Shown here: positions 5,085 to 7,262 of the stretch, piece after piece
Numbering within the stretch: position 1 is the stretch's first letter
Layout of the letters: each line of letters starts with the position of its first letter
UHGV virus genome: UHGV-0112027
Strand: one strand, 5' to 3'
DNA length: 12,469 bases
DNA from: a virus
The notes under the pieces: generated by a model
What the model was told of the DNA's origin: nothing
Databases searched by the model: none
The model's input: the letters and a program-made list of their open reading frames with translations, nothing else
Translations under genes and position numbers: made by a program

Positions 5085-5188
5085 TTCCTATTGGTATTGC
5101 AATGAATGAATAATAGCAATGCGTATTAATCCAAGCAATAGCAAAACGTGTTTTGACCATCAATACGCAAGCGTATAAATTAAAACTT
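5085..5188. promoter_or_regulatory. OR-like operator/promoter region: divergent PR (toward cro) and PRM (toward cI) with repressor-operator repeats
   Basis: Palindrome ATACGCAAGCGTAT (5163-5176); AATAGCAAT motif at 5112-5120 and 5137-5145, shared with the OL region; plus strand TTGACC (5153-5158) and TATAAAT (5174-5180) placing a start at about the cI ATG (leaderless, like lambda PRM); minus-strand candidate PR -35 TTGCTT (complement of 5133-5138), 17-bp spacer, -10 TATTAT (complement of 5110-5115). Confidence 0.55.
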
Positions 5189-5881
5189 ATGAAAAAAGAA
5201 ACTCTTGCTGATCGCTTAAACCTAGCGATGGAACAATCTGGAATGTCTCAAGGCGCTCTTGCAAAGGCGTCTGGCGTAGCTCAACCCACAATCTGGAGAC
5301 TGACAAGCGGCAACGCGCGCGGCTCAACAAAAATTGTTGAAATAGCTAATGCATTGGGTGTTCGAACAGAATGGCTCTCATCAGGCATAGGCCCGATGAG
5401 AAATGACGGTCAACAATCAGGGAAGCCTGCTGTCAGCCATTCCAAATACTTCAAGATTGACGTTCTTGATATAGAAGTCAGTGCCGGGCCGGGTGTAATC
5501 AACCGTGAGTTTGTAGAAGTTCTACGCTCGGTTGAGTACTCGTTTGACGATGCTCGTCACATGTTCGATGGCAGGAAGGCGGAAAATATCCGCATCATTA
5601 ACGTGCGTGGTGACAGCATGTCAGGAACGATCGAACCAGGTGATCTGCTGTTCGTTGATATCACAGTTAAATCTTTCGACGGTGATGGTATCTATGCGTT
5701 TCTGTACGACGACACAGCCCATGTAAAGCGCCTGCAAATGATGAAGGATAAGCTGCTGGTTATCTCTGATAACAAAAGCTACTCACCGTGGGACCCGATC
5801 GAGAAAGACGAGATGAACCGGGTGTTCATCTTCGGTAAGGTTATTGGGAGCATGCCGCAGACATACAGGAAGCATGGGTAA
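5189..5881 (+). CDS. cI: CI-type prophage repressor (N-terminal HTH, C-terminal LexA/S24-like autopeptidase domain)
   Basis: 230 aa from ATG 5189 (track start 5153 is a TTG inside the operator region). HTH MSQGALAKASGVAQPTIWRL; C-terminal S24 signature NVRGDSMSGTIEPGDLLFVD...HVKRL (Ser/Lys dyad context). Confidence 0.85.
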   Translation: MKKETLADRLNLAMEQSGMSQGALAKASGVAQPTIWRLTSGNARGSTKIVEIANALGVRTEWLSSGIGPMRNDGQQSGKPAVSHSKYFKIDVLDIEVSAGPGVINREFVEVLRSVEYSFDDARHMFDGRKAENIRIINVRGDSMSGTIEPGDLLFVDITVKSFDGDGIYAFLYDDTAHVKRLQMMKDKLLVISDNKSYSPWDPIEKDEMNRVFIFGKVIGSMPQTYRKHG

Positions 5882-5970
5882 AGCGTCTTCATGGGACCAA
5901 AGCTGACAAAAAAGCTGTAACATGTGATTAAAGCGATCTTTGGAGACACACTTTGCTTGTCCTGGTACAG

Positions 5971-5999
5971 TTGCTTTCATGTGACAAAGAGAACATAAT
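5971..5999 (+). promoter_or_regulatory. Candidate sigma70 promoter for the cargo cassette (TTGCTT, 17 bp, CATAAT)
   Basis: -35 TTGCTT at 5971-5976, 17-nt spacer, -10 CATAAT at 5994-5999; sits between the cI stop and the cargo ORFs. Confidence 0.35.
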
Positions 6000-6030
6000 T
6001 TGTACAGTCAGTTCTCTATGGAAAATCATC

Positions 6031-6210
6031 ATGTTCAAGAAAATTTTGAAGAAAGTGAAATCAGAGACGCCTTCACATGGTGTGGATGAACTCATTCAAC
6101 TTTTCGATGAGATAGATGAAAAGCAAAAAAGAATTCGCGAGGAAAAAGAAAAATTTAGAGAGGATTGGCAAAATGGAGCTCGAACAACAAAGCACAGATT
6201 CACTATTTGA
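6031..6210 (+). CDS. Small highly charged hypothetical protein (59 aa), overlaps the start of the 285-aa cargo ORF
   Basis: In-frame ATG at 6031 within track ORF 5953..6210; K/E-rich (EIDEKQKRIREEKEKFREDW); weak RBS; could be non-coding. Confidence 0.3.
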   Translation: MFKKILKKVKSETPSHGVDELIQLFDEIDEKQKRIREEKEKFREDWQNGARTTKHRFTI

Positions 6211-7030
6211 TTTTCTTTACATAGACCGTGTACGCGTTAGCTCCCTCACAGCCCAGCTTCACAATGCTGGTGTAGTGACGAGCGTAAAACAAACTACTTC
6301 TGACACAGATAAATCTAATAAATCCGTTGAATTAAGCGTCAAGATTCTTAAAGGAAAAGTGGGGACTGACGACACCTTAACACATTCGCAAGAGAAAACT
6401 TTCGACGCTTCATGGTCATTACCAATTAATTTTCTCGATAAATTAGATGAAGCAGGAATGATTAAAACTGGACTTAATGGTGAGAATCTTGGTTCAGTTG
6501 TTCATTCTGTTGGAAAAATGCGCATTTTTGATGTGTCAACTATTCAGAAAATTATGCCTATTTTTGGTGAGATAGCCCAAGCACAATTAAACACGGTCAA
6601 CCTTCCCCCAAAAGCCAAAGCGAAGCTTAAAGGGAAACTCACCCCAGATGAAATTGAGATATCTCCAGGGCTTACCATTGGTGTAGTTAAGAAACTCATT
6701 AATATCGTTCCCAACATCCTCCAGGTTGATTTTATTGATGAGAATGGCAACCTGATGTGGATGTCTATTGATAAAGAATATTTAACAATTAATCCTGATG
6801 ACTTAGCCTTAAAATATGGTGGCACCATACCGGGTACCTGGCATGTCATTGGATTGATTGATGCCTTGCCAGATTCTGTACAAGATCAGAATATCAATAA
6901 CCCTGATTTCCCTGAACACGATCTCAAGTCAGGATTACAATCCTTCCTGGATATGGTCAAGGTACAAGCTGGTAGAGGAAGTGATTCGTATGGGATGACA
7001 CCACTTCTCATCTTTAGAACAGTAGGCTGA
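6173..7030 (+). CDS. Hypothetical cargo protein (285 aa) at the rexAB-equivalent position; candidate phage-exclusion/abortive-infection factor of unrecognised family
   Basis: ATG 6173 with GAGG Shine-Dalgarno 9 nt upstream (track start 6116 is also an ATG but lacks an RBS); AT-rich (about 30-38% GC in sampled 60-nt stretches versus about 60% in bet); followed by a strong terminator; no Walker or other catalytic motif visible by eye. Confidence 0.7.
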   Translation: MELEQQSTDSLFDFLYIDRVRVSSLTAQLHNAGVVTSVKQTTSDTDKSNKSVELSVKILKGKVGTDDTLTHSQEKTFDASWSLPINFLDKLDEAGMIKTGLNGENLGSVVHSVGKMRIFDVSTIQKIMPIFGEIAQAQLNTVNLPPKAKAKLKGKLTPDEIEISPGLTIGVVKKLINIVPNILQVDFIDENGNLMWMSIDKEYLTINPDDLALKYGGTIPGTWHVIGLIDALPDSVQDQNINNPDFPEHDLKSGLQSFLDMVKVQAGRGSDSYGMTPLLIFRTVG

Positions 7031-7056
7031 TATTCTATTTACCTAACACACTATAA

Positions 7057-7089
7057 AAAGCCCCCGGCCACCGTGCCGGGTTTTCTTTT
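7057..7089 (+). terminator. Rho-independent terminator ending the cI-cargo transcription unit
   Basis: A-run, then stem CCCGGC (7063-7068) / GCCGGG (7075-7080) with a 6-nt loop, then TTTTCTTTT (7081-7089). Confidence 0.7.
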
Positions 7090-7175
7090 GCCCTCCCCTC
7101 ATCACACACACCGTTAAAAAAACCACCATAACCTCGCTTCAGTTATCGCTATGCGATTCAAGTCACAAAATTAAT

Positions 7176-7262
7176 TCTTTTTGCTATCAAACATTTAATA
7201 TCAAAACACATCAACTAATAGCAATAAGTATTGATATCACCAATAGCAATAGCTATTATCAC
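7176..7262 (+). promoter_or_regulatory. OL/PL-like region: rightward promoter TTGATA-N17-TATTAT with overlapping operator repeats
   Basis: -35 TTGATA 7231-7236, exactly 17-nt spacer, -10 TATTAT 7254-7259; AATAGCAAT motif at 7217-7225 and 7242-7250 (same motif as in OR); inverted-orientation copy TTGCTAT at 7181-7187. Confidence 0.5.

Follow-up and report, generated by a model that had tools for sequence, protein, structure and literature searches.

We asked which repressor specificity is encoded by a divergent cro/cI pair and its control regions in the UHGV virus genome UHGV-0112027, of which a 12,469-nt stretch was analysed as a whole (the window, on which all positions are numbered). A preliminary description of this DNA had pointed to one 9-mer repeated between cro and cI and again over a rightward promoter, and had read it as the operator motif of a bipartite OR/OL system whose CI repressor is not of the lambda immunity type. 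Our analysis of the sequence upholds both parts of that reading, with one correction to the repeat, and indicates that the window very likely carries a lambdoid prophage CI/Cro immunity switch of non-lambda repressor specificity. The switch is related to that of the ST104 type, and the immunity type appears to be an ordinary, apparently uncharacterised one.

The two regulatory genes are laid out as in lambdoid phages, diverging from a control region of 110 bp:

4851-5078, minus strand: cro, lytic repressor of the YdaS/Cro family, 75 aa (PF15943, E=9.6e-15; phrog_35)
5189-5881, plus strand: cI, repressor of 230 aa with an N-terminal HTH_3 domain and an S24 peptidase domain

CI matches PF00717 (E=1.3e-18) and PF01381 (E=1.8e-6), and the autocleavage residues of its S24 domain (Ala99-Gly100, Ser143 and Lys180) are invariant in the alignment. 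In a PDB sequence search the nearest solved relative was the 434 repressor, to which the N-terminal domain of CI aligns. The same search gave no detectable match between CI and lambda CI chains, its C-terminal domain included, so that lambda-like formation of tetramers and octamers is unsupported by homology. The recognition helix of CI (helix 3) reads AQPTIWRL and that of Cro is near-identical, AQPTVWRW; the Cro helix is kept in homoimmune relatives and not in the heteroimmune locus L006. Helix 2 of the window's CI, SQGALAKA, has no acidic residue, and in the light of the lambda positive-control mutants a lambda-style activating patch cannot be assumed.

The repeat itself departs strongly from chance. 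The 9-mer AATAGCAAT occurs exactly at 5112-5120, 7217-7225 and 7242-7250, three matches against 0.14 expected, a count reached in none of 200 dinucleotide shuffles. A fourth copy had been listed at 5137; the sequence there is AATAGCAAA, which matches at 8 of 9 positions, and the longest sequence common to all four copies is the 8-mer AATAGCAA. With up to one mismatch allowed, AATAGCAAT has 10 matches (3.6 expected), eight of them within 5084-5145 or 7217-7257. The 9-mer forms one half of an 18-bp pseudo-palindrome, yAATAS-N6-STATTr. This symmetric pattern, with up to two mismatches, also has 10 matches (3.4 expected), eight of which fall within 5076-5178 or 7172-7258. While the 9-mer is thus truly repeated, the binding unit is better taken to be the 18-bp pseudo-palindrome than a 9-mer direct repeat. 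A literature search for the 9-mer returned only unrelated primer and sequence listings, and we found no published description of these operators in open-access papers and preprints, though older or subscription literature could hold one.

Placed on the control region between cro and cI, the symmetric pattern yields three candidate operators on two promoters:

5110-5138, minus strand: promoter PR, with -35 TTGCTT (5138-5133), a 17-bp spacer and -10 TATTAT (5115-5110)
5111-5128: OR1, candidate operator, TAATAGCAATGCGTATTA, no mismatches to the symmetric pattern
5136-5153: OR2, candidate operator, CAATAGCAAAACGTGTTT, left half matching the consensus and right half weak
5153-5181, plus strand: promoter PRM, with -35 TTGACC (5153-5158), a 17-bp spacer and -10 TAAATT (5176-5181)
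5161-5178: OR3, candidate operator, CAATACGCAAGCGTATAA, one mismatch to the symmetric pattern

The centres of OR1, OR2 and OR3 are exactly 25 bp apart in both intervals. OR1 lies over the PR spacer and 5 bp of the PR -10, OR2 covers 3 bp of the PR -35 and adjoins the PRM -35, and OR3 lies over the PRM spacer and 3 bp of the PRM -10. PR, with a predicted +1 near 5103, was read from the sequence; a consensus promoter scan missed it, as the -35 agrees with the consensus at only 3 of 6 positions, and the arrangement TTGnTw-N17-TATTAT is kept in relatives. PRM scored 9/12 in the scan, with a predicted +1 at 5188/5189, at the A of the cI ATG; its hexamers do not change among relatives, nor does the length of the 7-nt gap before the ATG. 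In place of the two 9-mers and a separate palindrome that had been described for OR, we find three evenly spaced 18-bp sites, and the palindrome, ATACGCAAGCGTAT at 5163-5176, is contained in OR3. Its position was given correctly, and it does cover the first one to three bases of the PRM -10, depending on the hexamer chosen; it otherwise occupies the PRM spacer and does not overlap the -35 as had been supposed.

A second cluster of sites lies about 2.1 kb from OR, over the strong promoter PL and beyond a terminator that closes the operon of cI and its cargo:

7063-7090, plus strand, bidirectional: intrinsic terminator from the terminator scan, closing the cI-cargo operon
7196-7213: OL3, weak candidate operator, TAATATCAAAACACATCA, matching the consensus in its left half only
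7216-7233: OL2, candidate operator, TAATAGCAATAAGTATTG, no mismatches to the symmetric pattern
7231-7259, plus strand: promoter PL, with -35 TTGATA, a 17-bp spacer, -10 TATTAT and a predicted +1 near 7266
7241-7258: OL1, candidate operator, CAATAGCAATAGCTATTA, no mismatches to the symmetric pattern

The terminator has a 6-bp stem made entirely of G+C and a T-run on both strands. PL scored 10/12, the best promoter-scan score within 4800-7500, and the centres of OR2 and OL2 are 2080 bp apart. The geometry of the sites on PL is identical to that on PR: OL1 covers the spacer and 5 bp of the TATTAT -10, just as OR1 does, and OL2 covers 3 bp of the -35, just as OR2 does. OL3 lies 20 bp from OL2. Two TATCACC copies in OL (7235 and 7257) were considered as lambda-type half-sites and rejected, as they are direct repeats; the first of them is not conserved in prophage Perceval.

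We then compared the sites across ten loci from six genera that have the CI helix AQPTIWRL in common, in which the sites are kept at both OR and OL and the spacers vary. A PWM built on the window's own sites and run on the Salmonella, Klebsiella, Kluyvera, Citrobacter and Raoultella loci picked out the OR and OL clusters only, in loci encoding the same CI helix. Variable columns in gap-free alignments were concentrated outside the half-sites, at OR (nine distinct sequences among the ten loci; 3 of 36 half-site columns vs 15 of 27 spacer columns, p=5e-5) and at OL (15 of 48 vs 13 of 16, p=9e-4). Site by site, OR1 and OL2 are kept in all ten loci, OR2 is near-invariant among the nine distinct OR sequences, and OR3 varies across them in its first base alone. 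The left half of OL3, TAATAs, is kept in place in nine loci, the exception being L011 with TAATGC, and its right half is a good match in L005 and L011 only. OL1 is kept in relatives, but with its better half-site on the other strand, an argument for symmetric recognition.

A natural swap is provided by three loci, PhiR34_1, PhiR5_1 and a Klebsiella grimontii prophage, in which helix 3 of CI reads SQAAIQKI and the yAATAS-N6-STATTr motif is absent. Alignment and blastn define two immunity-specific patches:

4822-5324: patch 1, comprising cro, OR and cI codons 1-45, non-homologous in the heteroimmune siblings
7172-7265: patch 2, a 94-bp OL/PL cassette

PhiR34_1 and PhiR5_1 are 92-97% identical to the window outside these two patches and a variable cargo segment (5881-7062), and within the patches they carry AACAAC/GTTGTT repeats in place of the window motif. 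The blastn alignment of the window with L003 and L006 breaks exactly at 4822-5324, with 92-97% identity on both sides, and the boundary of CI protein homology follows helix 3. At the OL/PL cassette the AACAAC/GTTGTT sequences of the siblings are palindromes, and the flanks are about 95% identical. Siblings whose CI is changed in residues 1-45 only thus lack the motif and carry another one at OR as well as at OL.

These comparisons bear on two other accounts of the repeat. It is extremely improbable that AATAGCAAT recurs through shared ancestry or duplication of PR and PL and is promoter sequence rather than a protein site. OR1 and OL1 do both end in GCTATTAT, which is part of the -10, and PR and PL agree in their -10 hexamer and in the geometry of their sites; the 18-bp unit is nevertheless found also at OR2, OR3, OL2 and OL3, none of which is a -10 element, and OR3 is on a different promoter, PRM. 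The better half of OL1 flips strand in relatives while its position is kept, and the motif is lost at OR and OL exactly where CI residues 1-45 and cro are exchanged. We also consider it very improbable that the 9-bp repeats are bound head to tail and not as inverted half-sites of a symmetric dimer. All four strong AATAGCAA copies in the window are on the plus strand and stand 25 bp apart inside each cluster, as such binding would have it, but a partner half, STATTr, stands nine bases from every copy, OR3 is a near-perfect palindrome, and OL1 of the Klebsiella, Kluyvera, Citrobacter and Raoultella loci keeps its position but has AATAGCAAT on the other strand. Repressors of the 434/P22 HTH_3 type, the class to which CI belongs, are moreover symmetric dimers on DNA.

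An immunity switch of this kind would work as follows. A CI dimer, with a 434/P22-type HTH and SOS-cleavable, would bind the 18-bp pseudo-palindromes yAATAS-N6-STATTr. CI at OR1 and OR2 would cover the -10 and -35 of PR and turn off cro and the rightward early genes, and CI at OL1 and OL2 would cover PL in the same geometry. OR2 adjoins the PRM -35, just where a lambda-type repressor sits when it activates its own promoter, and OR3 lies over the PRM spacer and -10, so that its occupation by Cro or by excess CI would shut off cI. Cro would be expected on the same sites as CI, its recognition helix being almost the same. OR2 and OL3 match the consensus in one half only, and their occupancy would need cooperativity. 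The sites themselves, the way they lie on the promoters, their conservation and their co-variation with the CI and Cro recognition helices are observed, and binding, occupancy order, cooperativity, OL-OR looping, PRM activation and the transcription start are inferred. The PRM -35 is already near consensus.

Each cluster is flanked by one further operator-like sequence, and the two have the same variant half-site, AATTC:

5082-5099: fourth operator-like candidate, CAATTCCTATTGGTATTG, covering roughly +5 to +22 of the PR transcript within the cro leader, PWM score 16.9, one mismatch to the symmetric pattern
7172-7189: distal OL-side candidate, TAATTCTTTTTGCTATCA, two mismatches to the symmetric pattern

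It is possible, if doubtful, that each control region has four sites, the fourth with an AATTC half-site, against lambda's three. Such a layout would recall CP-933P, where four palindromes were footprinted. The outer CAATTCC...GTATTG of the leader-side candidate is kept in most of the ten loci, with a variable centre (TATTGG, TAAAAG, TATGAG or TATAAG), and Perceval shows symmetric changes at the two end bases (C to T, G to A); in the Salmonella locus L004 the site is degenerate. It also overlaps the cro Shine-Dalgarno sequence, which alone could explain the conservation of its left half. The distal OL-side candidate is likewise invariant on its outside (wAATTC...GCTATCA) in the ten loci and variable at its centre, and the swapped OL cassette has its left boundary at the first base of this site. 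Should CI or Cro bind the AATTC sites, they would act as a downstream roadblock on cro and as an extra anchor for OL-OR bridging. On the same reading the siblings would show specificity moving as two small patches, one of cro, OR and 45 cI codons and the other of 94 bp at OL. The reverse complement of the distal OL site begins with a -35-like TTGATA, and a leftward promoter was considered there; the matching -10 in the window, TGTGAC, is a poor one, and there is no minus-strand gene beyond it.

The preliminary description had also proposed a leaderless cI transcript, from a TATAAAT -10 ending 9 nt before the cI ATG. That spacing is confirmed: TATAAAT occupies 5174-5180 and the ATG starts at 5189, which leaves 8 nt in between and makes the A of the ATG the ninth. 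No Shine-Dalgarno pairing was found before this ATG (duplex energy -0.1 kcal/mol vs -4.2 for the cro leader), and the -10 puts the predicted +1 on the start codon. The cI message is thus probably leaderless, with PRM starting at the A of the ATG or one base before it; an alternative -10, TATAAA with a 15-bp spacer, would give a leader of 2-3 nt. We think it rather unlikely that cI is not leaderless, with PRM starting further upstream, or with translation beginning at the in-frame TTG at 5153 or driven mainly from a long PRE-type transcript. The frame from TTG 5153 to the ATG is open in the window and in relatives, one annotator took this TTG as the start, and among annotations Salfasec13b has an upstream cI start (PhiR68_2 has a downstream one). 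That TTG, however, coincides with the PRM -35 and lacks an upstream Shine-Dalgarno sequence, two other annotators chose the ATG, and the 434 repressor alignment starts at residue 6-8 of the ATG-initiated protein. The gap of 7 nt from TAAATT to the ATG, moreover, keeps its length in nine distinct sequences while its sequence drifts. Measured precedents for a leaderless repressor message are paaR2 (PMC8630535) and lambda cI.

How does this switch relate to known ones? The architecture is that of lambda: divergent cI and cro with three operators about 24-25 bp apart between them, OR2 adjoining the PRM -35 and OR3 on PRM, a -10 placed for transcription to start at the cI start codon, a repressor with an S24 autocleavage domain, and, some 2 kb off, a further group of operators at PL, with prophage-expressed cargo at the rexAB position in between. 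The specificity is not. Lambda operators are 17 bp long and of the TATCACCGC type, whereas those of the window are 18 bp and read yAATAS-N6-STATTr; the window's Cro is of the YdaS family, the gene at the cII position is of the YdaT family, and no N gene lies 3' of PL. P22 operators are 18 bp long, and P22 c2 resembles the window in this length. With 434 the window shares an alignment over CI residues 7-66, a recognition helix whose first position is glutamine, and recognition-helix residues common to CI and Cro; the similarity is weak (E about 1e-5), and the helices (QPTIWRL in the window vs QQSIEQL) and half-sites differ.

Comparison with known lambdoid immunity groups, one of the checks that had been proposed, relates the window to the ST104 type, the P22-like Salmonella phages ST104, SE1, ST160, ST-32 and Salfasec13b. 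Their CI is 86% identical to that of the window with helices 2 and 3 identical, and OR1, OR2, OR3, OL1 and OL2 are kept at the same spacing. A classification of 2008 (Casjens/Villafane), which predicts the same specificity from at least 92% repressor identity to a prototype, gave ST104 a repressor specificity type of its own, one without a studied prototype (PMC2629481). The window's CI falls below that value, at 86% to Salfasec13b and ST-32, which stand at the same DNA distance from the window as ST104. Given an identical recognition helix and conserved operators, the same specificity seems the likelier reading despite the 86%. The window, an N-less lambda-like E. coli prophage, differs from the Salmonella phages, whose CII is lambda-type, whose antiterminator is N-like and whose virion genes are of the P22 type. 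In the Salmonella phage that was aligned, the leader-side fourth site is degenerate.

CP-933P of E. coli O157:H7 offers another comparison. There YdaS has the role of Cro and YdaT is an analogue of CII, four 18-bp palindromes have been footprinted in a control region of about 100 bp, OL1-3 lie on a PL-like promoter, and 5' RACE and N-terminal sequencing showed paaR2 to be leaderless (PMC8630535). The palindrome consensus is GTTTAGTAA in CP-933P and AATAGCAA in the window. PaaR2 is small (15 kDa with a His tag, about half the length of the window's 230-aa CI), and paaR2 is followed by a toxin-antitoxin pair, unlike cI here; the window has a full-length, presumably SOS-cleavable CI, and its early region appears to be that of an intact prophage.

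Several other elements were sought. The PL leader (7266-7452) as an HK022 put-like antiterminator RNA is not supported: its fold is unremarkable (z = -0.42), and blastn found it only in the window's E. coli phage group and not in HK022. Rfam, searched with the whole window at gathering thresholds, gave no match, and PADLOC gave no meaningful match for the two cargo genes. A non-coding stretch left of OL is conserved; the sRNA svsR was considered for it and rejected, as svsR lies at the cI 3' end in another prophage.

The operator consensus and the two patches would allow homoimmune and heteroimmune prophages to be predicted by sequence alone, and could make superinfection immunity among gut E. 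coli prophages explicable, for example for Perceval of LF82, whose CI (98% identical to that of the window) is transcribed in LF82 lysogens (PMC9928086). The locus would also provide another orthogonal repressor/operator pair for synthetic circuits; the general understanding of such switches is unchanged. By megablast the OR/HTH module was found in 719-723 genomes, about 720 of 5,426 complete E. coli genomes (~13%), and the 93-nt OL cassette in 251 genomes only. The lower count may reflect the sensitivity of a short-query search, variant OL cassettes or truncated prophages; in the SE11 and SF-468 genomes, inspected directly, OL has the same operators with a few spacer changes. The immunity type also occurs in Salmonella and Klebsiella phages and in Kluyvera, Citrobacter and Raoultella genomes.

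The switch is part of the module that controls the early region of a lambda-like prophage. The region is arranged as follows, where cargo denotes the variable genes between cI and OL (the rexAB position of lambda):

3265-4284, minus strand: replication-protein-like ORF
4281-4826, minus strand: gene at the cII position, YdaT family
4851-5078, minus strand: Cro, YdaS family, 75 aa, adjoining the replication-protein-like ORF and the YdaT-family gene
5189-5881, plus strand: cI, 230 aa, HTH_3 and Peptidase_S24 domains
6031-6210, plus strand: small ORF at the rexAB position
6173-7030, plus strand: DUF6414 gene at the rexAB position
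7063-7080: bidirectional terminator, 3' of the cargo and before the strong promoter PL
after PL, plus strand: leader of about 190 nt, then kil-like, gam, bet and exo genes

Over three compared stretches (OR with the start of cI, the cargo, and the OL cassette), the window is 100% identical to E. coli 13TMH22.

The preliminary description had placed one 9-mer, AATAGCAAT, at four positions. It is exact at 5112, 7217 and 7242, but the copy at 5137 reads AATAGCAAA, a one-base error in the observation overall, and the word common to all four copies is the 8-mer AATAGCAA. The three exact matches compare with 0.14 expected, and none of 200 shuffles reached three; the frequency and clustering of the motif are far above chance. 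The palindrome ATACGCAAGCGTAT lies at 5163-5176, as had been claimed, and TATAAAT is indeed found before the cI ATG (5189), ending 8 nt ahead of it. The repeat unit is an 18-bp pseudo-palindrome, yAATAS-N6-STATTr, of which the 9-mer forms the left half. Five predicted sites follow it:

5111-5128: OR1, TAATAGCAATGCGTATTA
5136-5153: OR2, CAATAGCAAAACGTGTTT
5161-5178: OR3, CAATACGCAAGCGTATAA, whose core is the palindrome at 5163-5176
7216-7233: OL2, TAATAGCAATAAGTATTG
7241-7258: OL1, CAATAGCAATAGCTATTA

With up to two mismatches allowed, the symmetric pattern is matched 10 times in the window, where 3.4 matches are expected; 8 of the 10 fall inside 5076-5178 or 7172-7258. From centre to centre, OR1 and OR2, OR2 and OR3, and OL1 and OL2 are each exactly 25 bp apart, close to the 23-24 bp of lambda operators.

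The sites interlock with three promoters:

7231-7259: PL, TTGATA-17-TATTAT, scoring 10/12 in a promoter scan
5153-5181: PRM, TTGACC-17-TAAATT, scoring 9/12 in the scan
5138-5110, minus strand: PR, read from the sequence, with -35 TTGCTT (5138-5133), a 17-bp spacer and -10 TATTAT (5115-5110)

PR is missing from the scan because its -35 matches at only 3 of 6 positions; relatives preserve the arrangement TTGnTw-N17-TATTAT. OR1 and OL1 each overlap the TATTAT -10 by 5 bp, and OR2 and OL2 each overlap the -35 by 3 bp, so that PR and PL, the two lytic promoters, are covered in identical geometry. OR2 has 1 bp in common with the PRM -35, and OR3 lies across the PRM spacer, reaching 3 bp into the -10. 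By the logic of lambda, PR would be repressed from OR1 and OR2, OR2 would be positioned to help PRM, and PRM would be shut from OR3; we infer these roles from position only.

The right half of OR2 is weak, and 5143-5154 makes a near-palindrome of its own, AAAAC-GT-GTTTT, extending into the PRM -35. Despite having no operator half-site match, it is invariant save for one base in one of nine distinct homologous sequences (that of Citrobacter pasteurii), which suggests an additional constraint there. In OL, TATCACCA occurs twice, 22 bp apart (7235-7242 and 7257-7264), and resembles a lambda operator half-site. Because the two copies form a direct repeat, and phage Perceval does not preserve the first of them, the pair is probably due to chance.

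Several E. coli phages, among them PhiR30_1, PhiR68_2, Perceval (genus Bievrevirus), 4A7 and Lambda_4C10, share the module of cro, OR and the N-terminal region of cI at 96-100% identity. Of 5,426 complete E. coli genomes, 719-723 carry it. Distant homologues have a helix 2-turn-helix 3 identical or nearly so to the window's MSQGALAKASGVAQPTIWRLTSGNARG. They include the P22-like Salmonella phages Salfasec13b and ST-32 (CI 86% identical in protein; ST104, SE1 and ST160 lie at equal DNA distance), Klebsiella phage ST11-VIM1phi8.2 (CI 82% identical), and prophages of Kluyvera intermedia, K. cryocrescens, K. georgiana, Citrobacter pasteurii and Raoultella lignicola. A position weight matrix made from the window's five sites and run on the distant loci scored highest between cro and cI and, 1.9-2.9 kb downstream of there, in a second cluster overlapping a TATTAT -10, with 25-bp spacing among the OR sites and between OL1 and OL2. 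The Klebsiella phage has the sites in its OL region though this lacks blastn similarity to the window.

Over ten homoimmune loci, OR and OL align without gaps. Variable columns number 3 of 36 in half-sites against 15 of 27 in spacers at OR (Fisher p = 5e-5), and 15 of 48 against 13 of 16 at OL (p = 9e-4). The sites could also be read as direct repeats; however, several relatives have the better half-site of OL1 on the other strand, its position unchanged, which argues against that reading and for symmetric recognition by a dimer. Two further candidate sites have an AATTC variant half-site in common:

5082-5099: CAATTCCTATTGGTATTG, in the cro leader, over the cro Shine-Dalgarno sequence
7172-7189: TAATTCTTTTTGCTATCA, at the far edge of the OL cassette

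In the former, the outer bases are preserved in most of the ten loci and the centre varies; the site is degenerate in Salmonella, and in Perceval both end bases are changed, symmetrically. In the latter, wAATTC...GCTATCA is invariant in all ten and the centre varies across genera. Part of the first pattern may be due to the Shine-Dalgarno sequence, and part of the second to a possible leftward -35 (TTGATA, minus strand). In OL3 (7196-7213) only the left half is preserved. All three are candidates rather than established operators.

A natural exchange of specificity ties the 18-bp motif to CI. The heteroimmune siblings PhiR34_1 and PhiR5_1 match the window at 97% identity as far as 4821, where the cII-like gene ends, are unrelated to it over 4822-5324, and match again at 92% over the rest of cI, from 5325; their cargo within 5881-7062 differs, and from 7063 onward they are 96-97% identical save for a substituted cassette, 7172-7265, which begins at the first base of the distal OL-side site and ends at PL position -1. 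Cargo aside, they depart from the window in these two small patches only. The crossover in cI falls within the N-terminal domain directly after the recognition helix, at codon 45/46: helices 1-3 differ (LTQKALGDLVGVSQAAIQKIETGKANQ), CI is identical from residue 47 onward (TKIVEIANALGV...), and helices 4-5, linker and cleavage domain are common to both immunity types. The sibling Cro helix reads SQQAVYKW against AQPTVWRW in the window. Neither sibling has a AATAGCAA-type site; both have AACAAC/GTTGTT palindromes instead, at OR and at OL, and the same holds for a Klebsiella grimontii prophage that has this alternative helix. The motif comes and goes with the first 45 CI residues and cro, at two places 2 kb apart. 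This co-swap, the strongest evidence available short of a binding assay, argues that the 18-bp sites are the operators of this CI.

The sibling type appears to have the same design, with AAAAC...GGTTGT repeated at OR and OL (2659-2760 in sibling locus L003, 3394-3500 in sibling locus L006) and TACATT 6 nt ahead of what is probably the real cI start (MKTTLSERL), where a Shine-Dalgarno sequence is likewise lacking; the start annotated in the deposited records lies 22 codons upstream.

CI residues 7-66 align with the N-terminal domain of 434 repressor, and Gln32 is the first position of the recognition helix. The S24 domain retains Ala99-Gly100, Ser143 and Lys180, which in the LexA/CI family imply RecA-stimulated self-cleavage, and by this analogy CI would be cleaved in the same way. 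A PDB search with CI matched no lambda CI chain, so lambda-style tetramer and octamer contacts are not inferable by homology. Helix 2 lacks an acidic residue and the PRM -35 is near-consensus; hence only the position of OR2 makes it plausible that CI bound there activates PRM.

The -10 TAAATT (5176-5181) predicts a transcription start at 5188/5189, on the A of the cI ATG or one base ahead. Among the nine distinct homologous sequences, the gap from TAAATT to ATG is constant at 7 nt, and 6 of the 8 positions between TATAAAT and ATG are variable. The cI start has no Shine-Dalgarno sequence (anti-SD duplex energy -0.1 kcal/mol, versus -4.2 for the cro leader). Annotators place it differently; the ATG at 5189 fits the 434 repressor alignment best. 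Taken from sequence, the cI mRNA is fairly likely to be leaderless, as proposed. In the CP-933P switch, paaR2 is leaderless by 5' RACE and N-terminal sequencing (PMC8630535).

By every sequence-level test of membership this is a lambdoid immunity region, and it would work like the switches of lambda, 434 and P22. The preliminary description had put it outside the lambda immunity type and read the repeats as a CI operator system at OR and OL; both views are supported, the latter with refinements. Among known immunity groups, the ST104-type repressor is the closest that has a name; in 2008 it was given a specificity type of its own, one without a studied prototype (PMC2629481). The window's CI is 86% identical to it, under the 92% rule of that paper, but the recognition helix is identical and the operators are conserved, and we therefore predict the same specificity. 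In the related CP-933P switch, too, Cro is of the YdaS type and the CII analogue of the YdaT type; the four 18-bp palindromes there, and OL1-3, have been footprinted or tested (PMC8630535). The Perceval paper (PMC9928086) gives no operators for the present type, nor does the word "operator" occur in it, and we found none in open-access papers and preprints. The switch is of a familiar lambdoid kind, and in that literature its operators are apparently undescribed.

The PL operon is without an N-like gene. Its untranslated leader (7266-7452), preceding the kil-like ORF (7453-7743) and then gam, bet and exo, is 94-99% conserved, only inside this E. coli phage group, to which the heteroimmune siblings also belong. 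Rfam returned no match for it, its fold is unremarkable (z = -0.42), and it bears no similarity to HK022 put. About 90 bp of non-coding sequence between the terminator and the OL cassette (7081-7171), with no evident function, is ~95% conserved even in those siblings. In the cargo (6031-7030), the small ORF (phrog_29688) overlaps the DUF6414 gene (PF19952, phrog_9699); PADLOC returned no match for this cargo, and it is present in only 7 of the 5,426 E. coli genomes, against about 720 for the surrounding immunity module. In relatives this position is occupied by quite different cargo (HipA/HipD-like, GevT/GevA, ASCH, ParA-like, Panacea-domain and transmembrane proteins), and it is a typical defence or moron hotspot.
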